64,000 bases of DNA from the NCBI RefSeq assembly GCF_002087085.1, contig NZ_MWQY01000020.1, positions 1 to 64,000 of the forward strand. The letters run 5' to 3'. Shown in pieces: positions 9,996 through 59,127 of the stretch. The notes beneath the pieces are model-generated. The model did not search any database. It saw only the letters and a program-made list of their open reading frames with translations, and was not told where the DNA came from. A program made the translations under genes and the position numbers. How positions within the stretch are numbered: position 1 is the first letter of the stretch; every line of letters begins with the position of its first letter.

Positions 9996-10040
9996 GATAT
10001 CCCCCTTATTATCAGTTCAAATGTTTCAGATACACGTTAA

Positions 10041-10080
10041 ATGTATACGTATACATTATCACACATCTGCAATATGTCAA
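10041..10080 (-). promoter_or_regulatory. Sigma70 promoter with overlapping LacI-type operator copy 4 (10041-10056)
   Basis: Minus strand TTGACA-N16-TAATGT overlapping the perfect ATGTATACGTATACAT. Confidence 0.85.
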
Positions 10081-10222
10081 GGAAAAAAACGTGCAGAACA
10101 CCGCAGCTACCACTGTCAGCAAGGATCGAAACGTCATACTGGACGGACTTTTGCGCCAAAAAAAGCCCGCCGCCTGCTTTTCAGTCTGCCGGGGAGCTTT
10201 CGTATAGCCGGGTTTCAGCCGG

Positions 10223-11455: not shown

Positions 11456-12789
11456 ACGCGCTTGTACTCCTTGATCTCTTTCCGGATACGTGCGGCAAGC
11501 TCGCTCCGGTGGACCCGGACCTGCTCCATGGAGTCCCGGAAGCGCAGGGTAACCGTGCCGTCTTCCTTGGAGTCATAATCCACGGTAACGCAGTAGGGGG
11601 TGCCCCCTTCGTCCTGACGGCGATACCGCCGGCCGATAGCCCCGGACTGGTCGTAGAATACGTTGAAGTCCTCCCGCAGCTCCGCCTCGATTTCCCGGGC
11701 GAGTTCTGCAATGCCGTCCTTCTTGACCAGGGGAAGAATCGCAACGGTTATGGGCGCCACGGCGGGGTGAAAACGCATCACCGTTCGCAGATCCCCGTCT
11801 TCCAGCTGTTCCTCCTCGTAGGCGTCGGAGAGGACCATCAGAACCGAACGGGTAAGTCCGGCGGAGGTTTCGATTACATAGGGCACGTAGCGTTCACGGG
11901 TCTCCTCGTCCAGGTAGGTCTGGTCCTTTCCGGAGAACTCCTGGTGGCGGCCCAGATCGAAATCAGTCCGGTTATGAACCCCTTCCAGCTCCTGCCATCC
12001 CATGGGGAAGAGATACTCGATGTCGTAGGCGTCTTTGGCGTAGTGGGCCAGTTCATCCGGCCCGTGCTGGTGCCAGCGGAGCCGGTCGCCGCGGATACCC
12101 AGCTTTTCGTAGTAGCCCATCCGCCGTTCCCGCCAGTAGTTGAACCATTCGTCATCGCTGCCGGGTTTAACGAAATACTGCATCTCCATCTGCTCGAACT
12201 CGCAGGTACGGAAGATAAAGTTCTTGGTGACGATCTCGTTGCGGAAGGCCTTTCCCACCTGGGCGATACCGAAGGGAATCTTGACCCGGCTGGTCTGAAC
12301 AACATTGCGGAAGTTGACGAAGATTCCCTGGGCGGTCTCCGGCCGCAGATAAACAATGTTCTTGTCGTCCTTCACCGGGCCCAGATGAGTCTGGAACATC
12401 AGGTTGAACTGCCGGGGTTCGGTAAAGGTCCCGGAGTTGCCGCAGACGGGACAGGGAGCGGAGAGGTCGATGTGGTCCGCCCGGAAGCGGTTTTTGCATT
12501 CCTTACAGTCCACCAGGGGGTCGGAAAAGTTGGCCACGTGGCCGGAAGCCTCCCAGACCCGGGGGTGCATCATGATGGCGGCATCCAGTCCCACGATGTT
12601 TTCGTGGAGCTGGGTCATCTCCTTCCACCAGAAATTCTGAATATTCTTTTTGAGCTCCACACCCATGGGGCCGTAGTCCCAGGCAGATGAGAGGCCTCCA
12701 TAGATTTCGGAAGACTGAAATACAAAGCCCCGGCGTTTGCAGAGGGAAACGAGTTTGTCCATGGTTACTTCGGCGGTTTTTTCTGCCAT
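11452..12789 (-). CDS. glyQS: Glycine--tRNA ligase (homodimeric class IIa type)
   Basis: KRRGFVFQSSEIYGG, YLRPETAQGIF, FRNE, EFEQME, VIETSAG and an anticodon-binding domain (IGRRYRRQDE). Confidence 0.97.
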   Translation of the reverse strand: MAEKTAEVTMDKLVSLCKRRGFVFQSSEIYGGLSSAWDYGPMGVELKKNIQNFWWKEMTQLHENIVGLDAAIMMHPRVWEASGHVANFSDPLVDCKECKNRFRADHIDLSAPCPVCGNSGTFTEPRQFNLMFQTHLGPVKDDKNIVYLRPETAQGIFVNFRNVVQTSRVKIPFGIAQVGKAFRNEIVTKNFIFRTCEFEQMEMQYFVKPGSDDEWFNYWRERRMGYYEKLGIRGDRLRWHQHGPDELAHYAKDAYDIEYLFPMGWQELEGVHNRTDFDLGRHQEFSGKDQTYLDEETRERYVPYVIETSAGLTRSVLMVLSDAYEEEQLEDGDLRTVMRFHPAVAPITVAILPLVKKDGIAELAREIEAELREDFNVFYDQSGAIGRRYRRQDEGGTPYCVTVDYDSKEDGTVTLRFRDSMEQVRVHRSELAARIRKEIKEYKRV

Positions 12790-44503: not shown

Positions 44504-45262
44504 ATGAGGCGGAAAAGACGGGTCTCCCCGAAAAGCTATTCCCTTGCCCGGCTGTTGTCAAAACAACCTAAAAGCCTGGCCAGACACCCCCTGTATCCCC
44601 GGATGTTTCAGTTCTACAGGCTTTCGACAAGTCTTAAGTCCCTGCGATTCAGCCGCCGCTGCTACTCCCTTCTGGATCGGGCGGTTATTGCCCCTGAACA
44701 CCTCGGAAACTTCTATAAGACCTATCGTCTGCCGAAGGATCCTTTTTTTCCCCTGTTTTTTGCCATCAAGCGGGACTACCTGAACCACCGGAAGGATCTT
44801 AAACGACGTCGTGAGAGCTATATTCTGGCCCGGGTGCGGGAGCTTGACCCGCAGATACTAAGGTTTATCCGCTACCTGGGAAAATTGGAGCAGAAACTCA
44901 ACGCCGCCGGCAAAACCCCGGTATGGGAAAAAACCGTCTACCCGGGGAGCAAGAAACGGGCAGACGAGTATCTGCGCTGCAGCCTCGATCAGTGGATCCA
45001 AATATTCAGGTCCTTTGGCGATGGACTGCAGAAACGCTACCCCCGTAAAGCGGGAATTGCAGACTGGGAGCGGGTCTTTGCCGCCTTTATTCTCGAGTGT
45101 CCCCCCGGAGAAGATTCTGCTCATTACCCCGATGAGGCGCTGGTACGACGCCAGTACCGGAAGCTGTCCAAGCTTTACCATCCCGATTCGGGGGGTAATC
45201 CGGAACATTTCCGTCTCATCAAACAGGCCCGGGATATCCTGACCGAGGGCTTCAGAGAGTAA
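44504..45262 (+). CDS. Protein with a C-terminal J-domain (DnaJ-like)
   Basis: YRKLSKLYHPDSGG..F..IKQARDIL at the C-terminus. Confidence 0.8.
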   Translation: MRRKRRVSPKSYSLARLLSKQPKSLARHPLYPRMFQFYRLSTSLKSLRFSRRCYSLLDRAVIAPEHLGNFYKTYRLPKDPFFPLFFAIKRDYLNHRKDLKRRRESYILARVRELDPQILRFIRYLGKLEQKLNAAGKTPVWEKTVYPGSKKRADEYLRCSLDQWIQIFRSFGDGLQKRYPRKAGIADWERVFAAFILECPPGEDSAHYPDEALVRRQYRKLSKLYHPDSGGNPEHFRLIKQARDILTEGFRE

Positions 45263-45935
45263 AGAGCATCAGCGGGGACGGGCAGAAAGCTCTAATTACC
45301 GGAAGGTCCTTGGCTGAACAGTAGCCCCGGGAAAGAAAACCCTCATCCAGGCCTTTTTCCGTAAGTACCTGCAGATGGGTATGATGAAACCAGTTGCCGT
45401 TTTCATCGAAGTCCCCCACCACAGCAAAGCGCTCTCCTGCCCTGAACTCCCTGTTCCGGGGAGGCAGGGATGCGAGGGACAGATGTCCGTAGAGACTGTA
45501 GAAGGTCCGAAAATGGACAGAGGAGTGCCGGAGCAGTACGAAGGCGCCGTAGTTGCCCTCCCCTTCCTCGTAGCCCTGGAACTCAACCACTGAATCCAGA
45601 GGGGCATGCAGGCCCGTTCCGGCGGGAACGATTATGTCCAGTCCAAGATGAAAGAAGCGCTCCTCCCGCTGCATCTGAGGACAGGAGGAGAGGAGCTTTC
45701 TCCGGTCCTCCATATAGGATGCGAATCCCCAGGTACAGCGTCCCGACATCTGCTCATCGATGATGTGCTGGTACCGCCGCTGGTCCCTGGGATCGATTCC
45801 GTCGAAGAGGCTGCTTTCGGGAGAAAGATCAAGAATATAGGGGTCTCCCCGGAGGTCAGGAACAAGAGGGGCCCGTCTGGTATTTTCACCATAGAAGATA
45901 TAGGGGTATCTCAGCTCACCCGATAAGCCTGTCAT
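45252..45935 (-). CDS. Cytoplasmic M23-family metallopeptidase-like protein
   Basis: HxxxD (HLGLD), YG, YSLYGHL and HxH (HTHLQ); no signal peptide. Confidence 0.85.
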   Translation of the reverse strand: MTGLSGELRYPYIFYGENTRRAPLVPDLRGDPYILDLSPESSLFDGIDPRDQRRYQHIIDEQMSGRCTWGFASYMEDRRKLLSSCPQMQREERFFHLGLDIIVPAGTGLHAPLDSVVEFQGYEEGEGNYGAFVLLRHSSVHFRTFYSLYGHLSLASLPPRNREFRAGERFAVVGDFDENGNWFHHTHLQVLTEKGLDEGFLSRGYCSAKDLPVIRAFCPSPLMLFTL

Positions 45936-48388
45936 ATGGGGAACTCCGTGGAACTGACAAGGCCGGAAACGGGAATTACTGGTTTTCCGTCCTTTCCGAT
46001 TTCAACATTTTCCGGGAGCTGATAATCCGGATACATTTCCCTGAAATAGGGCAGGCTGTAGCTGTCGAGCTTTACCCGGATTCCGTCTTCACCGTGAATA
46101 AACGACGAGGTAAGGCCGTAGTAAACCTCTCCCAGGGGAGTCTGCAGGATGTAGCGGGGACCTTCGCGACCGCTTCCCTCCCGGCGGATTTTGGAAGCGA
46201 TATCGATGACATCATACATGTCCACGGGATGCTCCCGGTTCCACTCCCGTTGAACGGGATGACCGGCCACATAAAGGTGATGAAACTCGATTCCCGCTTT
46301 ACGGTAGGCAAAGGTGAGCTGACAGATCTCATCGGGAAAGTCGTTTATACCCCCCAGAAGCGGGGTATTGGCATACACGGTGATTCCCCGGTTTGTCAGA
46401 CGGCGGGTGAGCCGACGATGTTCCCCGGTAAGCTGAGAGGCGTTCAGGAACCATGTTTCAATTTCCAGGCGAAGGGGGCCGGAAACACTCAGATGGTTCA
46501 TGTCCGCCAGGGCAGTAACGAGGGGGCGGGAGAATACTTCCGGAGCGCAGGTGAATTCACTGCTCCGAATCCGCATTGCGTTTATATGACCGATTTTTCC
46601 AAGTTCCCCTGCTATTCTCTTCAGTCGGTACAGGGACTCGCCGACACCCGATTCCGGACGGACAATCACATCGCTTATGACGGGGTTTTCACGGAGATAC
46701 TCGAACACCTCTTCTCCGGCACGGCAGTCCATCTCCACTCTGGTTTCGTGGACCCGGTCCAGCCCGGGGATACCGGTTGGAACGATGGACTCACATCTGA
46801 GAAGGGGCCGGAGAGAAAGCCCTTTGAGGGTTTCCGGGACATCCATGGGAACAGGAACATGCTGGATCCTTAAAGGGCGAGACCCCAGAAAGTAGGCGTC
46901 CTTGCCCATCTTTGCCATATACTGAATATCCAGGGTGCCCTCCGGATTTACCCGGATATTCGGCAGCTCCGTCGCCAGGGGGGCGAAGGACTTGAAGTAA
47001 TCCGGAGTATAGGGGGTCCTGATCCAGATAAAGTTTTCCTCCCCCTCCACGGGCTCCACCGCCCATCCGCTGGTGTACCACTCCATCTTGCCGATGGGGG
47101 TAGCGGTACAGATTTTCGGTACGCTTCTGTCGGAGAGGTGCGCCCTCAGGTACTCGGCAATATCGATACCATCGGAAAGGGGCGACCAGTAGACGCTGTT
47201 TCCGTGGATGGGACTGCAGGGAATGTAGATATAATGCATCTCGGCGCCGGCACCCCGCAGAAGCTTGAAGAGCCTTGCCAGTTCCGGTCCCCGGTCGTTG
47301 CAGTCCTTCAGGAAAGGAGTCTGGATGTAAACGGCGATACCCGATTTTACAAGTTCCGTTATGATCTCCAGGCTGACCGGAGAGACCTCGTCGGGATGAA
47401 TAAAATGGGTGGCGATTTCCATCCGTTTGCCGTGAAGCTGAAGCTCGTAGTTCTTGTGCTTCAGGAATTTCATCCAGGATTCATCCTTCCGGAGGAACAG
47501 ATCGGGATAATAGGCCACCGAGCGGGTGGCAAGGCGCAGGGTCTGTACATGATCGATGGTCATAAGTCCGTCGATGGTGGCCTCCATGTTTCGACGGCTC
47601 AGAAAAGGGTCTCCCCCGGTAATGACAATCTCCTTTATGTCGGGAGAACTTCGCACATGCTCTATGGCTTTTTCGACATCCTCCACCGTGGGGTTCTCTT
47701 CGTTTCTCGACTCCTTGTGCTTGCGGAAACAGAAGCGGCAGTAGACCGGGCAGCTCATGTTCAGCAGATAAATAACCCTGTTCTGGTACATCTGTTCCAG
47801 AAGTCCCTGGTGAAACTGGCCTATCCAGGTGTTGGCATGACCCACCGGATCAAGCTCCTCCACGAAGGGCATGTACTGATAGGCGACATCCGGTGAGAGC
47901 ATCATCTGACGCACTGTATGATAGGACAAACGCACCGGGTACATCTCCATAACCTTCTGCAGGTCCTCACGCTGACTGTCGGGGACCTCGAGGTTGGTCA
48001 GGTCCACCAGGCTTTCCACATCCTTCACCGAAACATAACCATGCTGAGGGATTACAAGTTCAAGCAGGGAGAGGAGATACAGATAGGGAAGCCTGATACC
48101 CCGGACTGTTGCGTCTGCCGGCCCGGTACCGTCAAGGAGGGGAACCAGGGCAGAAAAGAACCCCGCGGAATCATCCTCGAAACCGCAGGCCCTGAGCAGT
48201 CCGGTGAAGCGCTCCGTCCCGTCTCCTTCGCCCAGGAGGGCTCTGAACTCCGGCCCCACCAGGTCAAAGGTGGCGTAGTTCTCCAGAAACTCCCTGCTCT
48301 TGTCTTCCAGTAGGGAGAGCGGGACGCTCAGTTCCCTGCCCGAGTTCTTCAATACGATTCTGACTGCATCTGTTCCGCTGTTCGTCAT
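45932..48388 (-). CDS. KamA-family radical SAM protein with a duplicated, degenerate second barrel
   Basis: CPVYCRFC, ITGGDP, THFIHPDE, QTPFLKDCND and TPIGK. The C-terminal copy lacks the Cys motif and the Lys. Start moved to MTNSG (48388). Confidence 0.9.
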   Translation of the reverse strand: MTNSGTDAVRIVLKNSGRELSVPLSLLEDKSREFLENYATFDLVGPEFRALLGEGDGTERFTGLLRACGFEDDSAGFFSALVPLLDGTGPADATVRGIRLPYLYLLSLLELVIPQHGYVSVKDVESLVDLTNLEVPDSQREDLQKVMEMYPVRLSYHTVRQMMLSPDVAYQYMPFVEELDPVGHANTWIGQFHQGLLEQMYQNRVIYLLNMSCPVYCRFCFRKHKESRNEENPTVEDVEKAIEHVRSSPDIKEIVITGGDPFLSRRNMEATIDGLMTIDHVQTLRLATRSVAYYPDLFLRKDESWMKFLKHKNYELQLHGKRMEIATHFIHPDEVSPVSLEIITELVKSGIAVYIQTPFLKDCNDRGPELARLFKLLRGAGAEMHYIYIPCSPIHGNSVYWSPLSDGIDIAEYLRAHLSDRSVPKICTATPIGKMEWYTSGWAVEPVEGEENFIWIRTPYTPDYFKSFAPLATELPNIRVNPEGTLDIQYMAKMGKDAYFLGSRPLRIQHVPVPMDVPETLKGLSLRPLLRCESIVPTGIPGLDRVHETRVEMDCRAGEEVFEYLRENPVISDVIVRPESGVGESLYRLKRIAGELGKIGHINAMRIRSSEFTCAPEVFSRPLVTALADMNHLSVSGPLRLEIETWFLNASQLTGEHRRLTRRLTNRGITVYANTPLLGGINDFPDEICQLTFAYRKAGIEFHHLYVAGHPVQREWNREHPVDMYDVIDIASKIRREGSGREGPRYILQTPLGEVYYGLTSSFIHGEDGIRVKLDSYSLPYFREMYPDYQLPENVEIGKDGKPVIPVSGLVSSTEFPI

Positions 48389-48522
48389 TGGCCGTAATCC
48401 TTGTGTTGTTGTCGAAACCCAGTATAGGGGATGTCCGGGCGGATAACAAGGAAAGGGAGCTTCAGGCGAAGGTATTTCTGTTTCCCCCATAAACGGAAAA
48501 CATGTTATTCTGAAGAGGAAAA

Positions 48523-49788
48523 ATGGTTCATGTCATAAAATCGTACTCCGAAGATCCTCTTCGTTCTGCGGCACTGGCCATATCTCTGCTGCTTCACGCT
48601 TCCACGGCCCTGCTCTTCCATTACGCATATATCGATTCAGGACAGCAGCATCTGATTCTGCAGGAGTTTGCCTGGCATTTCCGCATTCTGCTGGCCCTAT
48701 CCGCTGCCCTTTCGGTACTGCTGCGATTATTCCGGAAGAATGCTTCCCTGCTTCTCATTTTTAAAATAGGCCTCTTTTTCCTGATTACCTACCCCCTCGG
48801 ACTGGAGGTCGGTCTGTTCCTTGTTCTCCTGCTTACGGTTCTTACGGAGATTTTCGCTTATCTCCCGGTAAAAACAGCAGTTCTATACTGCGTGCTCTGT
48901 CTGGGAACGGCCGGAACCCTGGGCAAACCCGGGTCTGCATTCAACTACCCCCGGGACAGCGCCGAAATCCAGGAGCTGATCACAGTAGGGCTTACAAGCC
49001 TTCTCTGCTCCTTTCTTCTTCTGATATACCGGCAGACAAGGATAAACCTCTCCACGGAGAAACATAAAACCGGGCATCTGAATTCGGTCATTTCCCAGCT
49101 TTCGGACGCCAATCTCGACTTTCAGCGTTATGTACACAGCGTGGAATACTCGGCGGTTCAATCCGAGCGGCGAAGAATAAGCAGTGAGATTCATGACACC
49201 GTCGGTTACTCCCTGACAAATATTCTGATGACCCTGGAGGCCGTCAGCGACCTGATCGACAGGGATAGCCGGAGGGCACATGAGGCCCTCGAACGTTCCA
49301 TACGGGAAGCCCAGAACTGCCTGGAGGAGACCCGCCGTTCAATGCAGGAACTCAGGTCGAAGGAACAGAATGAGGCGGTGGGGCTTCAGGCCCTGGCCCA
49401 CCTGGTCCGTTCCTTCAGCGAAGCCACGGGAATCAGGGTGAAAATGGAGTTCGGCAACGCCCCCAACAGCTTCGGCAGCAGGATTGACCTTGTGCTTTTC
49501 AGGATAATACAGGAAGGCCTTACCAACGCTTTTCGCCACGGCCAGGCGGATACGGTCAGAATCGCATTATGGATCGAAAACAGTGAGCTGCTTGTTTCAA
49601 TACTGGATAACGGCCGGGGAACAAGCCAGATCGTCGAAGGAATAGGCATCAGCGGAATGCGGGAACGGGTGGAAAACATAAAGGGTACAATCAGTTTCAA
49701 AAACTATCCCGACGGTTTCAGTGTAAAGGCTGTACTGCCGCTTACGGAGGATGATAATGGACAGAATACGGGTAGTCCTCGTGGATGA
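48523..49788 (+). CDS. Membrane sensor histidine kinase (HisKA_3, NarX/DesK type)
   Basis: ERRRISSEIHDTVG, QEGLTNAFRHG, DNGRG and GIGISGMRER. Confidence 0.92.
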   Translation: MVHVIKSYSEDPLRSAALAISLLLHASTALLFHYAYIDSGQQHLILQEFAWHFRILLALSAALSVLLRLFRKNASLLLIFKIGLFFLITYPLGLEVGLFLVLLLTVLTEIFAYLPVKTAVLYCVLCLGTAGTLGKPGSAFNYPRDSAEIQELITVGLTSLLCSFLLLIYRQTRINLSTEKHKTGHLNSVISQLSDANLDFQRYVHSVEYSAVQSERRRISSEIHDTVGYSLTNILMTLEAVSDLIDRDSRRAHEALERSIREAQNCLEETRRSMQELRSKEQNEAVGLQALAHLVRSFSEATGIRVKMEFGNAPNSFGSRIDLVLFRIIQEGLTNAFRHGQADTVRIALWIENSELLVSILDNGRGTSQIVEGIGISGMRERVENIKGTISFKNYPDGFSVKAVLPLTEDDNGQNTGSPRG

Positions 49789-50446
49789 CCAGGTTTTATT
49801 TGTAGAAAGCCTGCAGACCGTTCTGGAGCTCAGGTCCGACGACATCGAGGTCGTGGGGACTGCCCATAACGGAGAAGAAGGGCTGGAGGTCATCCGGGCT
49901 GCCAGACCGGACATAGTCCTGATGGACGTACGGATGCCCGGGATGGACGGCGTAGAAGCCACCCGCAGGCTGCACCAGGAACACCCGGAAATCAAGGTTG
50001 TCATGCTGACAACCTTTGATGATGACGTCTACGTTCGCGAGGCCATGCAGTACAGCGCTGTAGGATACATTCTCAAGAATATCCCCGCCACCAACCTGAT
50101 CAATTCGATCCGGGCTGTCATGGACGGAACGATCCAGCTTTCTCCCAGCGTCATGCACAAGATAGTCAGCCCTGAAATCGACCCTGAACCTGCTGTGAAT
50201 GTCGGAAAAAAATCCCGGACTGAACTCCATGCCTCGGATTTCAGCCGCAGGGAGCGGGAGGTCCTCTACTTCCTGTCCAGGGGGCTGGATAACAGAACCA
50301 TAGGAGAAAAACTCTTTATTGCAGAGCAGACCGTGAAGAACCAGATTTCAAGGATATATGGAAAGATCGGCAGCCACGACCGCTTCAAAGCAGCGGAAAT
50401 CGCCCGGGAACTCGATATAGGCAGGTATATCTCCCGGGAGGACTAG
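49757..50446 (+). CDS. NarL/LuxR-family response regulator
   Basis: VDDQ, LMDVRMP, LTTFDD and a LuxR HTH. Confidence 0.93.
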   Translation: MDRIRVVLVDDQVLFVESLQTVLELRSDDIEVVGTAHNGEEGLEVIRAARPDIVLMDVRMPGMDGVEATRRLHQEHPEIKVVMLTTFDDDVYVREAMQYSAVGYILKNIPATNLINSIRAVMDGTIQLSPSVMHKIVSPEIDPEPAVNVGKKSRTELHASDFSRREREVLYFLSRGLDNRTIGEKLFIAEQTVKNQISRIYGKIGSHDRFKAAEIARELDIGRYISRED

Positions 50447-51435
50447 ATCCGTACAAGGGCCTCATTTTCAAGGGACTGAAGAAGCCGGTGAATGCAATTC
50501 TGAGCTTCCCGGGCTTCCCGTATCGGGACCTTCGCGGCCTTCCCTTCCCTCACGGAATCGAGAAAATCCATCAGGGCCATCCTGCGAAGGTCGGTTTCCG
50601 GCGGGAACTCTTCCACGCCCCTCTCCTCACCTGCAGTCCGGCGAAGTGTTCCGGTTTTCAGAGATGAGTACTCAGCCATAAGACGGGAGCAGACAAGACG
50701 GAATCCCGCCTCCCACCTGCCGGGAACGGCACAGTTGGAGGCAGCCAGGGAGACCAGGGCCCCGGATTTCATTACCAGGCAGGCTGTCGAGGTATCCTCG
50801 ATGGTATAACCCGGTACCTCACGATGACAGATGTTGTCCCGGAACCCGACGACCCCGGCGGCCGGACCGAGAAGGTGCAGAACCAGGTCGAAAAGATGGA
50901 TCACCTGTTCAAGAAGCTGTCCGCCGGAGATCTCCTCCCTTCGCCACCAGGAGGAATGAAGGGAATTGCACAGGTAAAAGCCCTGAAGCAGAGAAGCCGT
51001 ACCGGCCTCCCCGGAGCGCAGCAGTTCCTTGATCCTGACAACCAGGGGATGAAAACGGTGCTGAAAATCAACCTGGGTAATCACCCCGGCAGCCTCCGCC
51101 GCCCTGACCATATTCTCCGCTTCATTCTCTTTGAGAGCCAGGGGCTTCTCCAGAAAAAGGTGGATGCCCCGCCCCGCGGCCTCCTCCACTTCTCCCTGAT
51201 GCCCCCCGGGGGGCAGACAGACAAAGAGGGCATCGGGTTGTATCTGACCGAGCATTTTTCGGTGGTCCGTATACAGCGCTACCTTCCTGCCCAGCCGGGA
51301 GGCCAGGGCTTCGGCGCTTTCGATACGGCGGGAACAGAGGGCGACGATGCGAGCCTTGCCGCTGGCTTCGGCATTGAGGGCATGGGTCTGCCCCATGGAA
51401 CCGGTGCCGATGACAGCGCATCGCAGTCTATTCAT
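50443..51435 (-). CDS. Gfo/Idh/MocA family oxidoreductase
   Basis: GTGSMG, LEKPLA and GG.LLEQVIH..D. Start moved to MNRLRC. Confidence 0.92.
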   Translation of the reverse strand: MNRLRCAVIGTGSMGQTHALNAEASGKARIVALCSRRIESAEALASRLGRKVALYTDHRKMLGQIQPDALFVCLPPGGHQGEVEEAAGRGIHLFLEKPLALKENEAENMVRAAEAAGVITQVDFQHRFHPLVVRIKELLRSGEAGTASLLQGFYLCNSLHSSWWRREEISGGQLLEQVIHLFDLVLHLLGPAAGVVGFRDNICHREVPGYTIEDTSTACLVMKSGALVSLAASNCAVPGRWEAGFRLVCSRLMAEYSSLKTGTLRRTAGEERGVEEFPPETDLRRMALMDFLDSVREGKAAKVPIREAREAQNCIHRLLQSLENEALVRI

Positions 51436-52507
51436 CCTGTTCTCCCTCTGTTCCTGATTCCGCTGCAGGGAATACCACCCCAAGCTTTATTGCCCGGGCC
51501 GGATTCTCCATGCACATCCGGTACTCCTCCTTTAGCTCCGCGTAGGGAACAAGCCGGTCGATTATATGATGCCCCGGTATGAGCCCCCGCCCTGTCAGAT
51601 GCAGGCATTCGGCCTCTATGCGTTCGGCCCTCCAGCGGGGATGTTCCCTGTTGGGATCACTGGTGGCCCGGGAAAAGAGGATCTGCGGGCAGTTCATGTG
51701 GGCTTCGGCTCCCAGGTCCAGGCCGCCCCCCCAGGGGGGAGGAAAAGCTCCACAGACGACTCTTCCTCCGAAGGCAACACCGCGGAGGGCCTCCTGGAGG
51801 GCCTGCCGGGAGCCGGACATCTCAATAACCGCATCCGCGCCCATACCACCGGTACAAAGCTTCAACTCCCGTCCCACGTCAGAAGAACCCGGGTCCAGCA
51901 CCCCGGTGGCACCCAGTCGCAGGGCCGCAGCCAGGCGCTCCTTCAAGGGATCGACAGCCACGACCTGCGCCGCTCCGGAGAGCAGAGCCATACGGATACA
52001 GAGAAGCCCGATGGCCCCCATACCGAATACGGCCACCCTGTCCCCCAGGCGGACCTGACTGTCCCGTAGGGCCGCCAGGGCAAAACGGGCCGGGTCAAGA
52101 CACAGAGCGGAGCGCCAGTCAATCTTCGGCAGATGCCAGAGCCGGTCTGCGGGAACAAGCACATGTTCCGCAAAAGAGGAGAAGCCGAAAACACGCTCCC
52201 CTGCTGAAAAGTCCGTCACCCCCGAGCCGATGGCGGCAACCCTTCCTGCCACCATATTGCCGGCTAAAAAGAAGGATTCTCCACCCTCTTCCTTAATGTC
52301 CCCCGGTACTTTTTCATGGATTCGAAGTTCTTCGTTCCAGGTTCCCCTACGGGAAGGATACCCACGGGCCATGGAAAACTCGGTGCCATGTTTAATGGCC
52401 CCGTACTGAACTTTCACCAGAACCTCCCGCGGACCTGGATCCCGGCGGGGAATCTCCTTCCATTCCAGTCTTCCCGTCCCCTCCCCGACCTGCAGCACCC
52501 TGTTCAC
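51428..52507 (-). CDS. ycjQ: YcjQ-like zinc-type dehydrogenase (D-guloside 3-dehydrogenase homologue)
   Basis: GAIKHGTE, GNMVAG, LDPARFA..RD..VR.GD, GMGAIG, LG.EAH.N and FSRA.SDPN..HPRW match E. coli YcjQ as I recall it. Confidence 0.8.
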   Translation of the reverse strand: MNRVLQVGEGTGRLEWKEIPRRDPGPREVLVKVQYGAIKHGTEFSMARGYPSRRGTWNEELRIHEKVPGDIKEEGGESFFLAGNMVAGRVAAIGSGVTDFSAGERVFGFSSFAEHVLVPADRLWHLPKIDWRSALCLDPARFALAALRDSQVRLGDRVAVFGMGAIGLLCIRMALLSGAAQVVAVDPLKERLAAALRLGATGVLDPGSSDVGRELKLCTGGMGADAVIEMSGSRQALQEALRGVAFGGRVVCGAFPPPWGGGLDLGAEAHMNCPQILFSRATSDPNREHPRWRAERIEAECLHLTGRGLIPGHHIIDRLVPYAELKEEYRMCMENPARAIKLGVVFPAAESGTEGEQDE

Positions 52508-53811
52508 GGGATAATCCTGCAGTAGTCGCCGTGGGCCTCGAGCATGTCGTCGCAGAGGGAAACAATCTCGTCGATACTGAGCTCCGCCGCGGTATGGGGG
52601 TCAAGAAAGGCAGCCTGGTAGAGGGCCTCCCGGCTTCCCTTAAGGGCAGCCTCGATGGTCATGAGCTGCACATGCACTGCCGCACTGTTGAGGGCGGCAC
52701 ACTGGGTTGGGAGTTCCCCCGCATACACCCCCTGAACGCCGTTACGGTCAACCAGACAGGGAAGCTCCACCAGGGCTTTTGCCGGCAGGTTGGGAATGAG
52801 ACCCCTGTTCGGCACATTCCCGTGGACCCGCCGGGGAGTTCCGCAAACGACTGAGTCCATTATGCCGGCGGCATACTCGTAGGATAGGCCCCCAGCCTCT
52901 GCGCGGGAATCCAGGTCCTTACCTTTCTCCTGTTCCCACTCCCGGATCTGTTCCCTGCAGCGGCGGGGATATTCGTCCAGGGGGATATGGTATTCCTCGA
53001 TCAGCCCGGGATGCGTGCGCTTTATCCAGTAGGGAGTATACTCCGCATTGTGCTCCGAAGATTCAGTTACATAATAGCCGAAGCGCCTCATCATCTCGAA
53101 GCGCAGCCGGTCTTTATGCTCCCTGAGTCCTTGAGCCCTCCGCTTTATTTCCGGGTAGAGATCCCTGGCCTTGTGCTGTATTTCCAGCAGCCAGGCCATG
53201 TGATTTATCCCGGCAATCTTCCAACGGACTTCCTGCGGGTCGATGTCGATTCCGGTGTACTGCAGAAGCCGGGGGACGCAGATCTGTACGGAGTGGCACA
53301 GCCCGACGGTCCGGATCCCTGAAGCAGCCAGAATACCTCCGGTTACAATGGAGAGAGGATTTACATAATTAAGCAGAAGGGCATCGGGGCACTCCTTTTC
53401 CATCTCCTTAACGATCTCGAACATCACCTGCAGGGTCCGAATTCCCCGGAAGATCCCCCCGATCCCCAGGGTATCCCCGATGGTCTGCCTCAGCCCGTAG
53501 CGGGCGGGAATTTCAAAATCAATCACCGTTGCCGGTTCGTAGCCCCCCACCTGTATCGCATTTATGACAAAGTCCGCACTCCGCAGGGCAGCCCGCCTCT
53601 CATGATCACCGCAGAATCCCCGGACCCGGGCCAATCCGGCATTCAGTTTCTGGTTCATCCTGCCGATGATCGCCAGGGATTCCTCCAGCCGGACTCCGTC
53701 GATATCGTACAGGTGTATCTCGACATCCTGCAGAGCGGGAGTCTGAAAAACATCCCCCAGAATATTACGCACAAAAACCGTACTTCCTGCACCCAGAAAA
53801 GTAATGATCAT
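52504..53811 (-). CDS. melA: GH4 alpha-galactosidase
   Basis: GAGSTVF, IQVGG..DFEIP.RYGLRQTIGDTLGIGG, NYVNP, GLCHSV and TESSEHNAEY. Confidence 0.9.
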   Translation of the reverse strand: MIITFLGAGSTVFVRNILGDVFQTPALQDVEIHLYDIDGVRLEESLAIIGRMNQKLNAGLARVRGFCGDHERRAALRSADFVINAIQVGGYEPATVIDFEIPARYGLRQTIGDTLGIGGIFRGIRTLQVMFEIVKEMEKECPDALLLNYVNPLSIVTGGILAASGIRTVGLCHSVQICVPRLLQYTGIDIDPQEVRWKIAGINHMAWLLEIQHKARDLYPEIKRRAQGLREHKDRLRFEMMRRFGYYVTESSEHNAEYTPYWIKRTHPGLIEEYHIPLDEYPRRCREQIREWEQEKGKDLDSRAEAGGLSYEYAAGIMDSVVCGTPRRVHGNVPNRGLIPNLPAKALVELPCLVDRNGVQGVYAGELPTQCAALNSAAVHVQLMTIEAALKGSREALYQAAFLDPHTAAELSIDEIVSLCDDMLEAHGDYCRIIP

Positions 53812-53897
53812 ATCCTTGTCCTCATACCCGCCATGCTAAAACAGCAGATTCCCGGGGTATATAGCAAAATGTGGAGTCCCATTGTAAAATGTGGAGA

Positions 53898-54749
53898 ATG
53901 AAGTCCGGCGCTGAGTTTTTCAACACCATTGTTCCCTCCGCCGATATAAACCTTCTGTTCACAGGGTACGAACAGTGTCCTCCGGAAAAAGCCTGCGGCG
54001 GCATTCGTGCCCATTTTCTTCTGCATTATGTACTGTCCGGCGGCGGAACGGTACTCACCGGAAAAACGACCTCCCGTATCTCCGCGGGGGATCTGTTCTG
54101 CTATTATCCGGAACAGCCCCTCTGCTACACGGCGGATCCTTTGCGGCCATGGAAGTTCGCCTGGGTGGGATTCACCGGAACACGAGCCGGAGAAATTCTC
54201 AGGTCATCCTCCGGGGGAGCTCCTCTGACCATCCATACCCATCCCTCTCCGTCACGAATGGAGTCTCTCTTTGAATCACTCTTCCGGCAGCAGGAGAAAC
54301 GACACGAGGGTTTTAACCTGGTTTCGGAAGGTATTCTCCTCGAGATTCTGGGAGAACTGTGCCGGGCTCGCCGCAGCTATCCCGAATCTGTTCCGGATCA
54401 CGCCACTCCTGCCGATCCCGGAGCTGCTGACCTTCGGTCCTTTTATGTGGAAAAGATGAAGCAGTTCATCCAATCCAATTATCAGAACGCCATTACCGTA
54501 CAGCATGTGGTGGACTACATCGGGATTGACCGCTCCTACGCCTCCCGGATATTTCATCGCATCGAGAAGCGGACGATACAGCGCTACCTCATCGATCTCC
54601 GGATGACCCAGGCCAGAAGGCTGCTTGCGGAAAAGAGACTGTCCATTGTAAACGTCGCCCGTTCGGTGGGGTATCAGGATTATGCCACCTTCGAACGGCG
54701 TTTCAGGCAGGAGCACGGAAGATCTCCCGGTTCCTTTCCGGATGTGTAA
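53898..54749 (+). CDS. AraC family regulator (MsmR/MelR-like)
   Basis: Cupin G.E.C.P..H.LLHYV.SG.G and Y.AD...PW..WVGF.G, plus a double HTH; divergent from melA. Confidence 0.92.
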   Translation: MKSGAEFFNTIVPSADINLLFTGYEQCPPEKACGGIRAHFLLHYVLSGGGTVLTGKTTSRISAGDLFCYYPEQPLCYTADPLRPWKFAWVGFTGTRAGEILRSSSGGAPLTIHTHPSPSRMESLFESLFRQQEKRHEGFNLVSEGILLEILGELCRARRSYPESVPDHATPADPGAADLRSFYVEKMKQFIQSNYQNAITVQHVVDYIGIDRSYASRIFHRIEKRTIQRYLIDLRMTQARRLLAEKRLSIVNVARSVGYQDYATFERRFRQEHGRSPGSFPDV

Positions 54750-54753
54750 AACA

Positions 54754-54779
54754 GGTACGAAATCGGTACTTTCGTACTA
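54754..54779. promoter_or_regulatory. Candidate NarL-type operator upstream of the ABC binding-protein gene
   Basis: GGTACGAAATCGGTACTTTCGTACTA: GTACGAAA/TTTCGTAC inverted repeat, with GGTAC repeated 11 bp apart. Confidence 0.5.
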
Positions 54780-54848
54780 TTGTTGCCCCGGAATACCGGC
54801 TTTATGCTGATGTATGGAACTCAACTATTTCAAGGAGGTAGTGACGTG

Positions 54849-56231
54849 ATGAAAAAGTTGACAGTTTTTATGATGCTTTTGATCCTGCTCGGCACTTTCA
54901 TGTGGGCCGGCGGCCAGTCCGAACCCGCCGCGGAGGCGGCAGAGGTATCCGGACCGGTTTCCATCGATTTCTGGACCACCCAGACCCAGTCGGACCGGAT
55001 GGCCACCATCCAGGTACTGATTGATACCTTTGAAGCCCTTAACCCGGATATTTCGATCAACCTGGTGGCGGTCGACGAAAATGACATGGCCACCCAGCTG
55101 AACACCTCAGCAGCCGCCAATACCCTTCCGGCCATGATTGAGTGTGCTGCGGAAAACGCCGTAGCCTTCGGCTCAGAGGGACTTCTCAATGCGGAGGCGA
55201 TTACCGAAGTAATCAGGGACATCGGAAAGGAGAGGTTCTATGCCGGCACCCTGCGGCTGAACGAGACTGCCCGGAAAGGGATGTACTATGCTGTTCCCTA
55301 CCACGGCTGGGTGCAGGGAATCTGGTACCGGGCTGACTGGTTCGAAGAAGCGGGACTGAATCCTCCTTCCTCCTGGGATGACATTCTGAAGGCCGCACAG
55401 TATTTCTACAAACCGGCAGAAAACCAGTATGGAATCCTCGTTGGTACCAAGGCGGAGGCCTATGCGGAACAGTGCTTTACCCAGATTGCCATGGCCAACG
55501 GTGCCCAGCTCTTCGACGCCGAAGGAAACCTCATCTTCAATTCACCGAAGATGCGCGAAGCCGTCGAGTATTACGCTGAACTGGCAAAATACAATCCTCC
55601 GGGACCCCAGACCTGGCGTGCACGGGACTATTACCTGCAGGGTAAAATGGCCATGTTCTTCTACTCCACCTATATTATGGACGATCTGGCAATAGAGGCG
55701 GCGGCAAAGGACTCCCTGACAAACGAGAACTTCGAGGATCTGGCGGGCAGGAATTTTGATCCCGAACTCGTCCAGAATACCCGGCTATCCCCGATCATCA
55801 GAAACACCCAGAATGCCGGATACGGAACCATTGTAAGCTTCGGAATCCCCGATCATGGCGACCAGGCAAAAATCGCAGCAGTCCAGAAGTTCATCAAGTA
55901 CCTCTTCACCCCCAATGCCTATATTACCTGGCTGCACATGGCCCCTGGGGGTATGAATCCAGTTCTTAAGGAGATCGCCACCAATGCCCGTTTCCAGAAT
56001 GATCCCAAGGGCCTTTTCCAGCACTACGGAAAAGACAAAATGGCGGAGATCATCCAGGGCCTGGACAGTATCGAAACCTTCAGCATTGTCGAAGGCAAGC
56101 GTATGGCCGCAGCGAGCACAATATACTCCAAGCAGATAATCCCGCAAATGCTCTACAAAATTACCCAGGAGGGGATGGATATCGACGCAGCCATGGAATG
56201 GGCCGAGGCCGAGATGAAAAAACTCATGTAA
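54849..56231 (+). CDS. Sugar ABC transporter substrate-binding protein (YcjN-like)
   Basis: AGGAGG RBS and signal peptide; WVQGIWYR, EQ.FTQ.A..NGA, YSTYI and W..M.PGG. Confidence 0.88.
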   Translation: MKKLTVFMMLLILLGTFMWAGGQSEPAAEAAEVSGPVSIDFWTTQTQSDRMATIQVLIDTFEALNPDISINLVAVDENDMATQLNTSAAANTLPAMIECAAENAVAFGSEGLLNAEAITEVIRDIGKERFYAGTLRLNETARKGMYYAVPYHGWVQGIWYRADWFEEAGLNPPSSWDDILKAAQYFYKPAENQYGILVGTKAEAYAEQCFTQIAMANGAQLFDAEGNLIFNSPKMREAVEYYAELAKYNPPGPQTWRARDYYLQGKMAMFFYSTYIMDDLAIEAAAKDSLTNENFEDLAGRNFDPELVQNTRLSPIIRNTQNAGYGTIVSFGIPDHGDQAKIAAVQKFIKYLFTPNAYITWLHMAPGGMNPVLKEIATNARFQNDPKGLFQHYGKDKMAEIIQGLDSIETFSIVEGKRMAAASTIYSKQIIPQMLYKITQEGMDIDAAMEWAEAEMKKLM

Positions 56232-56255
56232 TACGCTTTGCGCAGGGGAAACAGT

Positions 56256-57149
56256 ATGAACATGCAGCATACGCTACAGGCAAAAGGACTGGATCTCAGA
56301 CAGCGCGAAATCGTGCTGGGATGGTCGCTTGTTCTACCATCGGTTCTGATCATCCTGGCACTTATTCTGTATCCGATTCTCTACAATATTTATCTCAGTT
56401 TTTTCGATGTGGAACCTCTGGCGGCCAATACCTATATCGGGCTGGAAAACCACAAGAATGTCGTTCTCGATCCCGGTTTCTGGAACGCTATTGCCCTGAC
56501 TGTCATCTATGTGCTCTTTACTACCCTGGGAACGACCCTGATGGGACTCTTTGTGGCCCTGGTCATGAACAAGGAGTTCCCCTTCCGGGGACTTGTACGC
56601 AGTCTCATACTGTTTCCCTATGTTGCGCCCGTAATCTCGGTGGTTTTTGCCTGGCAATTCATCTTTGATCCGGTAAACGGCATATTCATGGACCTTGCCT
56701 ACGAAAAGCTGGGGCTTTTCTCCAGCCGCTTCAATCTCATCGGCTCCCCCTCCACCGCCGTGTGGGTGGCGGTTATCTTCAGTATCTGGAAGAATTTCCC
56801 CTTTTCCTACCTGATGATTCTTTCACGGCTGCAGGCCATCGACCAGAACCTGTACGAAGCCGCGGAGATAGACGGGGCTTCCGGCTGGCAGAAGTTCCGC
56901 TACATAACCCTGCCGGAGGTATATTTTGTAATGGGAGCTATCGTCCTTCTCCGGATGATATGGAACTTCAACAAGTTTGAGGAGATCTACCTGCTCACGG
57001 ATAACGTGCGGGTGCTTTCGGTATACACCTACTTCAAAGCCTTCGTGGGAACCATGGAACTCGGACAAGGTGCGTCCCTTGCGGTGATCCAGTTTCTGCT
57101 GCTCATCGGTTTTATCCTCTTCTACGTAAAACGGGTACTCAAATGGTAA
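56256..57149 (+). CDS. Sugar ABC transporter permease (YcjO-like)
   Basis: RSLILFPYVAP.IS.VFAWQ; EAA loop LYEAAEIDGA..WQKFRYITLP. Confidence 0.92.
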   Translation: MNMQHTLQAKGLDLRQREIVLGWSLVLPSVLIILALILYPILYNIYLSFFDVEPLAANTYIGLENHKNVVLDPGFWNAIALTVIYVLFTTLGTTLMGLFVALVMNKEFPFRGLVRSLILFPYVAPVISVVFAWQFIFDPVNGIFMDLAYEKLGLFSSRFNLIGSPSTAVWVAVIFSIWKNFPFSYLMILSRLQAIDQNLYEAAEIDGASGWQKFRYITLPEVYFVMGAIVLLRMIWNFNKFEEIYLLTDNVRVLSVYTYFKAFVGTMELGQGASLAVIQFLLLIGFILFYVKRVLKW

Positions 57150-58105
57150 GACGTAACACTTTTTTGAGACGAAGCGGTTTTGCCCTTCTGGTGCTGGCAA
57201 TAGTCCTTTTCAGCATATTCCCTTTTATTCAGATGCTCTCGATCTCCCTCAAGTATCCCGGGGAATGGGGCAATCCGAGCCTGATCCCGGAAAAGATAAA
57301 TCTGGAAGCCTACATGGAGCTTCTGAACATCGGCCAGAGTACAAAAAACGTTCCCGAATCCGTTCTGAACCTTCTGAATGAGACCCCTGACCTGACGAAG
57401 GAGCAAAGAGACGCGATACTGAGCAAATACAAAAGTACGGGAGACGTATTTCCCTTTCTCCGGTATTTTGGGAACTCCTTCATGCTCTCCTTTTCAGCGG
57501 CCTTTTTTACCGTAATATTCGCCATCTTCGGCGCCTACTCCTTCAGCCGTCTGAGGTTCCCGGGGCGCTCATTTATTCAACGGGGGGTCCTTTTTGTCTA
57601 CATGTTCGGAGGAATACTTCTTTTGATTCCCCTCTACAAGATGTTCGTCAGTATAGGCTGGATCAGCGTCCCCCCGGGAGCCTTCCTGAGCCTGCTGATA
57701 ATCTATGTTGTCCAGACACTGCCGGTCTCCCTCTACATGCTGGGCAACTACTTCCGGACCATACCCTTCTCCATAGAAGAGGCAGCCATGATCGAAGGGG
57801 CTTCACGGTTCGGGACAATCTGGCGAATTATAATTCCCCTTTCCATTGCGGCAATCGTTACTGTCTTCATCTACTGCTTCATGATTGCCTGGAACGAGTA
57901 CCTCTTTGCCTCGGTATTCCTGAAAAACTTCAAGGACCTCTACACCCTGCCCATGGGACTCAAGGCGCTTTTCACCTCCAAGAATGCAATATGGGACCGT
58001 ATCATGGCCGCATCGGTACTGACTGCGACGCCGGTAATTATTCTGTTTATCTCGATTCAGAGAAACCTGGCGGGAGGAATGGCCGCGGGGGGCGTAAAAG
58101 AGTAA
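57143..58105 (+). CDS. Sugar ABC transporter permease (YcjP-like)
   Basis: GAYSFSRLRF.GR, VYMF.GILL..PL, IEEAAMIEG and YCFMIAWNEYLFAS. Confidence 0.92.
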   Translation: MVRRNTFLRRSGFALLVLAIVLFSIFPFIQMLSISLKYPGEWGNPSLIPEKINLEAYMELLNIGQSTKNVPESVLNLLNETPDLTKEQRDAILSKYKSTGDVFPFLRYFGNSFMLSFSAAFFTVIFAIFGAYSFSRLRFPGRSFIQRGVLFVYMFGGILLLIPLYKMFVSIGWISVPPGAFLSLLIIYVVQTLPVSLYMLGNYFRTIPFSIEEAAMIEGASRFGTIWRIIIPLSIAAIVTVFIYCFMIAWNEYLFASVFLKNFKDLYTLPMGLKALFTSKNAIWDRIMAASVLTATPVIILFISIQRNLAGGMAAGGVKE

Positions 58106-58129
58106 GGGCTGCCCGTATACGGACAGCCC
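58106..58129. terminator. Hairpin between convergent genes
   Basis: GGGCTGCCCGT-AT-ACGGACAGCCC. Confidence 0.55.
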
Positions 58130-58162
58130 CCGTGTTGACGATGGGAAACTATCTCTGAGGAA

Positions 58163-58939
58163 TCAGCGTTTTGCTCCTGCAAGGGCCTCTTCCACCAGGG
58201 AATAGAAGGTGTCATAGGAGATGGTTGCTCCGGTGACTGCATCAGGAACTGCAGTTTCCTGGCTCTCCAGGAAGGCCTTCTCTACGGCCTGGGCCTGCTC
58301 GTGCCACTCCCTGGTTGCATTGGAATTGGCCACCATGCCGTATTCCCCGTCCATGGAACGCTGAACCTTGTTGGTTCCGCCGTCTTCGGCCACGGCATCC
58401 CAGTGGGCGGATACCACATACCCGGAAGTTACCGTAAAATCTACAAAGTACTTCCATCCATTATGGAACTCGTCATCCGAAGCGGAGTAGGTACCGTCCT
58501 TGTAGGGACCATAGCCCACAGGACCTTTGGCCAGAGCTTCGGCGGCGAGTTCGTAGAACTCATTGTAGTGTATGGTAGCTCCGCTTATGGCATCGGGCAT
58601 CTCCGTGGAAGGATTTTCCCTGAAATACTCCTCCACCGCAGCGGCCTGAACATGCCAGTCTGCCTGGGCGCCCCCCTGGGCAACCATGGGATAATTACCT
58701 GCTTTGGAAACGGAAACCTTGTCGGGTCCGGCATTGATATTGGAGCCGTTCCACACAACCTCGGTGAACTCTCCGTCCTCAACCTTGAGGGTTACGTTAT
58801 ATTTCCATCCGCTTTTGGGGAATTCCGTCTGCTGGGCAAAGTAGATCCCGTCTTCGTAGCCTGTCCCCTTCGAACTGCAGCTTACAAAAAGAGCGGCAGC
58901 GAGGGCCAGTACAACGGTAATTCTTACAATGTGTTTCAT
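58163..58939 (-). CDS. Lipoprotein with two FMN-binding (flavinylation) domains, PplA/Tpp15-like
   Basis: GGAGG RBS; lipobox FVSC; two repeats Y.DG.Y..GWKY..Y.MVA..WH.QA ending in DAISGAT and DAVTGAT. Confidence 0.88.
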   Translation of the reverse strand: MKHIVRITVVLALAAALFVSCSSKGTGYEDGIYFAQQTEFPKSGWKYNVTLKVEDGEFTEVVWNGSNINAGPDKVSVSKAGNYPMVAQGGAQADWHVQAAAVEEYFRENPSTEMPDAISGATIHYNEFYELAAEALAKGPVGYGPYKDGTYSASDDEFHNGWKYFVDFTVTSGYVVSAHWDAVAEDGGTNKVQRSMDGEYGMVANSNATREWHEQAQAVEKAFLESQETAVPDAVTGATISYDTFYSLVEEALAGAKR

Positions 58940-59127
58940 AGAAACCTCCAATCCTCTTATATTGGCCTTTTAATATAGTGTGAATAATATACTATCTTAT
59001 ACCGACTTTGAATATATATTTCAATATATTTAAAGCATATTATAGAGAAAATTCAGCATTATAAAGGTTGAGACTTCTTTATCGCCCACAATATTCACAA
59101 TTTACGATATTTAATCACATTAAATTA

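Follow-up and report, generated by a model that had tools for sequence, protein, structure and literature searches.

A conserved spirochaete variant of the ycj gene cluster that joins two dehydrogenases to a GH4 alpha-galactosidase, and a candidate guloside-to-galactoside route

In the scheme described for the ycj cluster of Escherichia coli, YcjQ oxidizes D-gulosides at C3, YcjR epimerizes C4, and YcjS reduces the product to a D-glucoside (the accessible parts of PMC11116085 and PMC13053599), in agreement with the RefSeq names of ycjQ (D-guloside 3-dehydrogenase), ycjR (3-dehydro-D-guloside 4-epimerase), and ycjS (D-glucoside 3-dehydrogenase). D-gulose, in turn, is the C3 epimer of D-galactose (the accessible part of PMC4011222); both statements agree with an earlier note on the DNA analyzed here, which proposed a C3 inversion from gulosides to galactosides. 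A 2024 ligand screen of the binding protein YcjN found no ligand, according to the accessible part of PMC11543891. Here, we describe a cluster of seven genes in two divergent units, across positions 50443-58105 of a 64,000-nucleotide stretch (positions 1 to 64,000, forward strand, of contig NZ_MWQY01000020.1, assembly GCF_002087085.1; hereafter, the window) from a marine spirochaete. The cluster links a YcjQ-family dehydrogenase, denoted Q', and a dehydrogenase of the Gfo/Idh/MocA family, denoted Gfo', with the GH4 alpha-galactosidase MelA and a YcjNOP-like importer, and is a real, conserved, and previously undescribed variant of the ycj pathway. A full-text literature search for a melA-ycjQ cluster or a guloside-to-galactoside route found neither.

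Composition of the cluster and its enzymes

The genes of the cluster are the following.

52504..53811, minus strand: melA, GH4 alpha-galactosidase, first gene of the operon (Pfam and NCBIfam)
51428..52507, minus strand: Q', YcjQ-family MDR dehydrogenase (YcjQ similarity)
50443..51435, minus strand: Gfo', Gfo/Idh/MocA dehydrogenase (Pfam); likely ATG at 51435, open reading frame (ORF) open to 51483
53898..54749, plus strand: AraC-family regulator, divergent from melA (Pfam); ORF open from 53871
54849..56231, plus strand: YcjN-like solute-binding protein (SBP) of a CUT1-type ABC importer (Pfam); likely ATG at 54849, ORF open from 54780
56238..57149, plus strand: YcjO-like ABC permease (Pfam PF00528)
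57143..58105, plus strand: YcjP-like ABC permease (Pfam PF00528)

All seven lie where the earlier note had placed them, as an overlapping operon of melA, a ycjQ-like gene, and a Gfo/Idh/MocA gene, divergent from an AraC gene and a YcjNOP-like importer; the longer ORFs that it took for Gfo', the AraC-family protein, and the SBP give way to the likely starts at 51435, 53898, and 54849. Because stop and start codons overlap at both junctions (GTGA is common to the melA stop and the Q' start, and ATGAATAG, with an overlap of 8 nt, to the Q' stop and the Gfo' ATG at 51435), melA, Q', and Gfo' are almost certainly translated from one message. Inside the cluster there is no gene for an ABC ATPase, a xylose-isomerase-fold protein, or a phosphorylase. 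Across the 64-kb window, a six-frame scan with hidden Markov models (HMMs) detected no xylose-isomerase-fold gene at E ≤ 1e-3, and neither a YcjM-like nor a YcjT-like gene was found. The absence of YcjR, YcjT, and YcjM noted previously thus holds for the window, but not genome-wide for the two phosphorylases, since a YcjM-like gene is present on contig C7 (39% identity, 452 bits) and a YcjT-like gene on contig C65 (30%, 303 bits).

A complete canonical ycj cluster, found in G288, a spirochaete of the same class with 66% GC (locus L118, G288:C29, 3467-14698), served as a yardstick for orthology. It encodes YcjM, YcjT, YcjS, YcjR, and YcjQ on one strand, a LacI-type regulator, and YcjN, YcjO, and YcjP on the other strand, with the following identities to the E. 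coli proteins.

YcjQ: 55%, 405 bits
YcjR: 47%, 264 bits
YcjS: 43% over 341 residues, 281 bits
YcjT: 37%, 464 bits
YcjM: 42%, 398 bits
YcjN, YcjO, and YcjP: 38%, 55%, and 55%; 323, 285, and 293 bits

The YcjQ match in G288 contains one in-frame TGA.

By this yardstick, the genome of the window has no YcjR orthologue elsewhere, a prospect that had been raised previously: its best match shows 26-29% identity at 70-87 bits, compared to 47% and 264 bits in G288. The genome encodes nine PF01261 proteins, all on other contigs, and the three neighborhoods that were checked contain genes for TRAP transporters, short-chain dehydrogenases, or a transaldolase-like protein, not glycoside genes. Gfo' falls short of YcjS orthology on the same scale (30% identity over the N-terminal 198 residues and 81 bits to E. 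coli YcjS, against 43% and 281 bits in G288), and another Gfo paralogue of the genome, on contig C3, scores slightly higher (87 bits). The cluster thus has its importer and first dehydrogenase in common with the canonical pathway, but an alpha-galactosidase and one Gfo enzyme of another kind stand in for YcjR, YcjS, and the phosphorylases.

Q' is 41% identical to E. coli YcjQ (326 residues, 223 bits), compared to 71 bits between Q' and the next-best MDR paralogue in the genome and 74 bits for the best solved MDR structure. It also reaches 71 bits on the model of the scyllo-inosose 3-dehydrogenase IolM, and all models of polyol and inositol enzymes stay below their cut-offs. Q' has all 54 invariant columns of a 22-sequence family alignment (A1), including those of KHGTE and GNM; K39, G41, T42, E43, G83, N84, and M85 are invariant in 22/22 sequences and H40 is present in at least 90%, with all eight residues shared by Q' and E. 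coli YcjQ. This signature was derived from alignment A1 in the present analysis, not from the literature, and presumably occupies the sites of the Cys and His-Glu metal ligands in classical zinc-dependent alcohol dehydrogenases.

Gfo' consists of the domains PF01408, PF22725, and PF02894, and its translation contains FLEKPLA, with the EKP motif that we take to be a hallmark of the Gfo/Idh/MocA family. It is below the cut-off on every NCBIfam equivalog, with weak matches to UDP-GlcNAc 3-dehydrogenase (70 bits), levoglucosan dehydrogenase (58 bits), and BT_2158 (44 bits), and to the solved chains 3q2k (71 bits) and DgpA 7xr9 (61 bits); its similarity to inositol dehydrogenases equals or exceeds that to the C3-acting members. 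As far as is known, the characterized Gfo-type sugar 3-dehydrogenases, including YcjS, make or use an equatorial C3 hydroxyl; YcjQ acts on the axial C3 hydroxyl of gulose. Separately, on another contig of the genome (G000:C12:55333-57467), a Gfo/Idh/MocA gene adjoins a xylose-isomerase-fold gene; by score, this pair is unrelated to YcjR and YcjS and is possibly an oxidize-then-isomerize or lyase pair.

MelA matches both GH4 domains (PF02056, 188 bits; PF11975, 197 bits), exceeds the cut-off of the NCBIfam alpha-galactosidase model NF011657 (570 against 486 bits), is 46% identical to E. coli MelA over its full length (384 bits), and is the product of the sole GH4 gene in the 4.2-Mb genome. GAGS, NYVNP, GLCHSVQ, and AGINHMA, identical in the two proteins in a pairwise alignment, are, we assume, cofactor and metal motifs of GH4 MelA. 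Orthology to MelA argues for a plain alpha-D-galactoside as the probable product of the pathway. Released galactose would be usable, given that galK (253 bits, cut-off 227) and galT are found elsewhere in the genome. In the GH4 catalytic cycle, C3 of the substrate is transiently oxidized by bound NAD+, so that a 3-keto-galactoside is MelA's own intermediate. There was no solved YcjQ or MelA structure to anchor a comparison of substrate pockets.

In our best reading, which we hold tentatively and with somewhat less than even confidence, the imported glycone is inverted at C3, from gulo to galacto, before MelA hydrolyzes the glycoside. The YcjNOP-like ABC system would import an alpha-linked hexopyranoside, and Q' would oxidize its axial C3 hydroxyl with NAD+ to a 3-keto-guloside; given that D-gulose is the C3 epimer of D-galactose, this product would already be the 3-keto-galactoside, the same molecule. 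Gfo' would then return the hydride from the other face, yielding the equatorial C3 hydroxyl of an alpha-D-galactoside, for which it would need to tolerate an axial C4 hydroxyl. MelA would hydrolyze the alpha-D-galactoside, pulling the equilibrium, and galactose would enter the Leloir pathway. Q' and Gfo' together would amount to a redox-neutral C3 epimerase, so that no C4 epimerase (YcjR) would be needed. The substrates, the carbon and the face at which each redox step takes place, the sequence of the reactions, and regulation by the AraC-family protein are our inferences. Such an inversion accounts for the missing epimerase, the Gfo enzyme that is not YcjS, the galactosidase in place of phosphorylases, and the joint gene loss described below. 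Where the epimerase is missing, the type of cleaving enzyme is different as well: the canonical cluster has alpha-glucoside phosphorylases, the window an alpha-galactosidase.

The enzyme scores also bear on a simpler explanation, which we consider possible but rather unlikely, namely, an ordinary alpha-galactoside operon of the melibiose, raffinose, or galactosyl-polyol type, in which MelA acts first and the dehydrogenases act later, on the aglycone or the free sugar. An AraC-type regulator divergent from melA, combined with a sugar ABC importer, is the classic layout, as in melR-melAB; genome G402 has a lone AraC-melA pair (58%) without a dehydrogenase; Gfo' finds its best family match in an inositol dehydrogenase, and Q' matches IolM; and joint decay of the three genes fits equally. 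However, the score of Q' with YcjQ greatly exceeds that with every polyol or inositol model, and the best genomic matches to IolD (232 bits, cut-off 715) and IolG (125 bits, cut-off 355) would leave an inositol aglycone without an onward path. To our knowledge, neither Q' nor Gfo' would be required for a galactose, glycerol, glucose, or sucrose aglycone, which also counts against later-acting dehydrogenases, and the YcjQ-family partner, the YcjNOP-like importer, and the constant absence of the epimerase are left unexplained. As the principal explanation, a galactinol or inositol aglycone was rejected, with no IolD or IolG at cut-off in the genome.

Occurrence and decay of the cluster across genomes

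For comparison, 86 YcjQ-family loci were collected (80 from metagenomes, 5 close relatives from reference genomes, and 1 from G288) and analyzed with a codon-score gene caller and by six-frame scans with HMMs built here. Xylose-isomerase-fold genes were counted with a rebuilt HMM covering the clade assigned to PF01261 by Pfam; the tree labels come from an older split (XI 27, other 30).

In ten of the 86 loci (L012, L013, L015, L016, L028-L032, and L042), Q' is flanked immediately by melA on its upstream side and by Gfo' on its downstream side, an AraC gene diverges from melA, and the gaps within melA-Q'-Gfo' measure -15 to +16 nt. Several of these ten are near-copies, and together they represent about 7 lineages. 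All are spirochaete-like, and their Q' proteins share 49-76% identity with the Q' of the window; their Gfo' proteins (45-78% identical to the window's) form an orthologue group of their own, separate from the Gfo genes of loci with the order Q-epimerase-Gfo. The conserved melA-Q'-Gfo' order is more than chance. A xylose-isomerase-fold match at E ≤ 1e-3 was found in none of the ten, up to 10 kb on each side, nor in the window, L014, L119, L121, or L123. The suggestion that clusters of ycjQ with melA systematically lack ycjR, made in the earlier note as a check across genomes, is therefore borne out without exception among the fetched loci. Among the other YcjQ-family loci, 32/75 have a xylose-isomerase-fold gene within 1.5 kb, in 28 cases directly downstream on the same strand; because the loci are related to each other, 0/10 versus 32/75 is not a clean statistic.

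Another view is that there is no common pathway and that, within a single spirochaete lineage, the genes of the two dehydrogenases are simply inherited along with melA: all ten loci appear to come from one related group, in which ancestry alone could keep the order. We nevertheless regard it as highly improbable, given that the order is kept down to 49% Q' identity with overlapping or near-touching frames throughout, that the flanks vary (L016 has no adjacent YcjNOP-like genes and no histidine kinase-response regulator pair), and that the trio decays together in two lineages. The tree of 89 YcjQ-family rows (L059, with 48 residues, was left out) is read unrooted, and no rooted claim is made because both outgroup paralogues sat on branches of length 10 and one of them fell inside the ingroup. 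The melA-linked rows need 2 label changes on this tree; 1 is also compatible, so a single origin of these rows is neither shown nor rejected.

The closest public loci belong to uncultured Spirochaetaceae and Sediminispirochaeta, and Q' is 96% identical to an NCBI protein named from Marispirochaeta aestuarii. Within the phylum Q' is rare, with a match at E ≤ 1e-40 in 2/401 genomes of an even sample, one of which is the window's own; at the order level, 3/7 genomes have a match at E ≤ 1e-50.

Loss of the enzyme genes can be followed in three relatives. In genome G404, of the same genus and with conserved flanks (L121, G404:C4, 8879-10786), melA is deleted, Q' is reduced to residues 189-351, Gfo' is split over two frames, and the AraC-family protein lacks its first 56 residues, with the SBP and permeases intact at 89-92% identity. 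Independently, locus L014 of Sediminispirochaeta (9068-11579) has a 46-residue melA remnant, a truncated Q', a fragmented Gfo', a 5'-truncated AraC gene, and an intact transporter; across G404 and L014, the SBP and permeases are 81-92% identical. In G402 (L123, G402:C497, 6926-12101), the genes of the SBP and permeases come directly after those of the histidine kinase and response regulator, without AraC or enzyme genes in the interval, and a lone AraC-melA pair (melA-AraC 58% identical) without a dehydrogenase lies elsewhere; this genome carries less weight because it is 12% contaminated. Thus, melA, Q', and Gfo' stand or fall together. In G404 and L014, the dehydrogenases are not kept once melA is lost, which argues that they belong to the same pathway as MelA. 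Together with the AraC gene, the trio resembles a cassette that was either added to or removed from an older kinase-regulator-transporter unit.

Alpha-galactosidase-family genes recur beyond these loci. In L094 (624-3811), an unrelated YcjQ homologue is followed directly downstream by a GH36 alpha-galactosidase-family gene, and L055 (825-2894, 7169-9742) has a GH36 gene 56% identical to it, 7 kb from its YcjQ homologue; tblastn across the 86 loci found no match to the L094 GH36 protein in L093 and L074, the nearest relatives of L094. These genes favor a wider link of the YcjQ family with alpha-galactosidases. On GC-rich metagenome contigs, GH95 genes adjoin YcjQ homologues in L107 (242-2937) and L055, and L055 also contains sulfatase genes; enzymes of the YcjQ family may tailor glycones for glycosidases in general. 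Two further loci, L062 (488-2509) and L087 (2076-6136), show another kind of epimerase-less pair, in which a Gfo gene (29% identity to Gfo') lies directly behind a YcjQ homologue; L087 continues with genes for an ABC permease and a binding protein of the ribose type, which suggests a free monosaccharide substrate.

Such variety bears on the idea that the same two-dehydrogenase inversion runs on another substrate or in another direction: for example, on a modified form of the gulo/galacto pair (6-deoxy, uronic, or amino), with oxidation elsewhere than at C3, or in the salvage of extracellular 3-keto-alpha-galactosides that glycoside 3-dehydrogenases of other bacteria produce. Q' has diverged within its family (41% to YcjQ), the family occurs in many glycan-degrading contexts (sulfatases, GH95, GH36), adjacent epimerase-less Q-Gfo pairs lie in L062 and by a ribose-type ABC system in L087, and 3-keto-glycosides are known as products outside cells (the accessible part of PMC11116085). 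Against these points, MelA orthology (46%, with NF011657 above cut-off) points to a plain alpha-D-galactoside, and keto-glycoside salvage would take one reductase, not two, so we judge these variants improbable.

Several observations weigh against a C3 inversion of gulosides. In 43 non-melA loci there is no xylose-isomerase-fold gene close by, and for 23 of them, where 1 kb or more is available downstream, this absence is genuine. YcjQ has sulfatase, GH95, gluconolactonase-like, aldo-keto reductase, and further genes as neighbors there; with at least 23 loci of unrelated context lacking an adjacent epimerase, the absence of YcjR is not special to the melA cluster, and the YcjQ family is functionally broader than the YcjQ-YcjR-YcjS pathway. 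Q' is 41% identical to E. coli YcjQ, compared to 55% for the bona fide orthologue in G288, so its specificity may differ. The best profile of Gfo' is the inositol 2-dehydrogenase IolG (107 bits, cut-off 355), and, as far as its sequence can tell, nothing in Gfo' fixes C3 or the galacto configuration. G402, G404, and L014 have the importer and the kinase-regulator pair but lack the enzymes; since it outlives the enzymes, the importer is evidently useful beyond the trio's pathway and not dedicated to it alone. The trait is also dispensable, as 3/5 other genomes of the genus have no Q' at E ≤ 1e-50. Finally, no natural alpha-D-guloside was found in listings and abstracts, where the literature on D-gulose and gulopyranosides consists of synthetic, rare-sugar, and metabolomics papers.

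Regulators, importer, and neighboring genes

Further features in and beside the cluster are the following.

53856..53876, minus strand: conserved element TCCACATTTTGCTATATAC upstream of melA, about 19 nt (by eye)
48523-49788, plus strand: histidine kinase (HK), convergent on Gfo' (Pfam)
49751-50446, plus strand: LuxR-type response regulator (RR), convergent on Gfo' (Pfam)
58104-58131: hairpin with a 12-bp stem, 3' of the YcjP-like permease gene

The AraC-family protein matches PF02311, PF12833, and PF00165, with the AraC model (68 bits) and the MelR model (62 bits) both below cut-off, and its ATG at 53898 is kept in relatives. By eye, the element TCCACATTTTGCTATATAC recurs in the melA upstream regions (140 nt) of L012, L013, and L015 as well as in that of the window, and in a weaker form in that of L016; it contains TGCTATATA, an extended -10-like sequence, and is a putative promoter or operator. 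An 11-nt direct repeat, AAAATGTGGAG, occurs on the plus strand at 53866-53876 and at about 53885-53896 with a 19-nt period, spanning the melA-araC intergenic region and the start of the araC ORF. The melA-proximal copy makes up the first half of the conserved element, and the second copy is present in the window only; the repeat may be a regulator half-site. A consensus promoter scan gave 6 sites against 4.4 expected, which is uninformative, and did not list the TCCACATTTTGCTATATAC element. The HK and RR genes downstream of Gfo' are also present in L012-L015 and L028-L032 and possibly encode the transporter's own regulator.

The SBP matches PF01547 and is 28% identical to YcjN (425 residues, 196 bits); its nearest solved relatives are 8ula (228 bits), 7v09, and YcjN itself (8vqk), and no paper mentioning 8ula was found that could give a clue to the ligand. 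The permeases are each 39% identical to their counterparts (204 bits for YcjO, 216 bits for YcjP). In metatranscriptome contigs from four runs of three studies, the SBP and permease genes are covered in all four, and one contig of run X17 bridges the SBP gene into the YcjO-like permease gene; short contigs on Gfo', melA, and the AraC gene come from run X18 only. DNA carry-over is possible in these data. This cover is at most a weak hint of expression, and gaps in it carry no weight. Loose contig ends at 54850 and 56541 look like sequencing-adapter sequence, not transcript ends.

Convergent on the last permease gene is a gene (58163-58951, minus strand) for an FMN-binding lipoprotein-like protein with weak similarity (61 bits) to PplA, the extracellular electron transfer flavoprotein; the hairpin at 58104-58131 is common to both genes. 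On the other side of the cluster, 45252-48490 (minus strand) encodes a KamA-type radical SAM aminomutase-like protein of unusual length (852 aa), kept in G404 at 83% identity, followed by a small M23 peptidase-like protein. G+C is 0.44-0.48 at positions 1-10000 of the window compared to 0.50-0.60 at 10001-64000, and with its strongly negative GC skew, the first 10 kb may be a foreign or otherwise distinct segment.

Implications and comparison with known systems

For the characterized E. coli ycj cluster, a second, differently wired version narrows the range of possible natural substrates: the same importer family and first dehydrogenase, combined with the lack of an epimerase and an alpha-galactosidase end, point to an alpha-linked pyranoside with axial C3 and C4 hydroxyls. 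The fullest form of the proposal, a dedicated marine-spirochaete route for natural alpha-D-gulosides or a close analogue, in which two free-standing dehydrogenases with distinct folds would epimerize C3 of the uncleaved glycoside in a redox-neutral manner and pass the resulting alpha-galactoside to a GH4 hydrolase, seems doubtful to us. If it were true, two-enzyme C3 epimerization of glycosides would join the known bacterial ways of readying unusual sugars for hydrolysis and offer a biocatalytic route between galactosides and rare gulosides, gulo-configured glycosides would be real environmental nutrients, and the orphan YcjQ/YcjN family would gain a physiological substrate class. YcjQ-type enzymes would then be general glycone-tailoring modules, coupled to whichever glycosidase or phosphorylase suits the product.

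The nearest described system is E. coli ycjMNOPQRSTUV-ompG. Both it and the window have a dehydrogenase of the YcjQ family (41% identity), an importer of the YcjN/O/P type (28/39/39%), and, as the second NAD dehydrogenase, a Gfo/Idh/MocA-fold enzyme; the logic of the two, C3 redox tailoring of the glycone followed by cleavage of an alpha-glycoside, would be the same. The window differs in that YcjR is missing, Gfo' is not a YcjS orthologue, and the cluster contains no phosphorylase, beta-phosphoglucomutase, ATPase, or porin gene; its regulator is AraC-type in place of the LacI-type YcjW, and the E. coli cluster ends in the alpha-glucoside phosphorylases YcjT and YcjM, whereas that of the window adds, and ends in, a GH4 alpha-galactosidase. 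With E. coli melR-melAB, the window has in common an AraC-family regulator divergent from a GH4 melA (46%) and a sugar importer, which is dedicated in E. coli; in the window, however, two dehydrogenase genes are translationally coupled to melA and the importer is YcjNOP-like, not MelB. The alpha-galactoside operons of the msmR/melREDCA type in Firmicutes have a layout similar to that of melR-melAB.

A Gfo/Idh/MocA enzyme that oxidizes a glycoside is also found, according to the accessible parts of the sources, in the levoglucosan system LgdA/B/C, the C-glycoside system DgpA/B/C, the broad-specificity Bacteroides pathway of the BT_2156-2160 type, and the O-glycoside beta-eliminase system of Agrobacterium. 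As described there, in such 3-keto-glycoside routes a xylose-isomerase-fold or other lyase cleaves after oxidation, whereas the window has no such gene and cleavage would fall to a conventional GH4 hydrolase. The GH4 cycle itself needs an equatorial C3 hydroxyl and keeps C3 oxidation internal to one enzyme; to this, the window adds two free-standing dehydrogenases.

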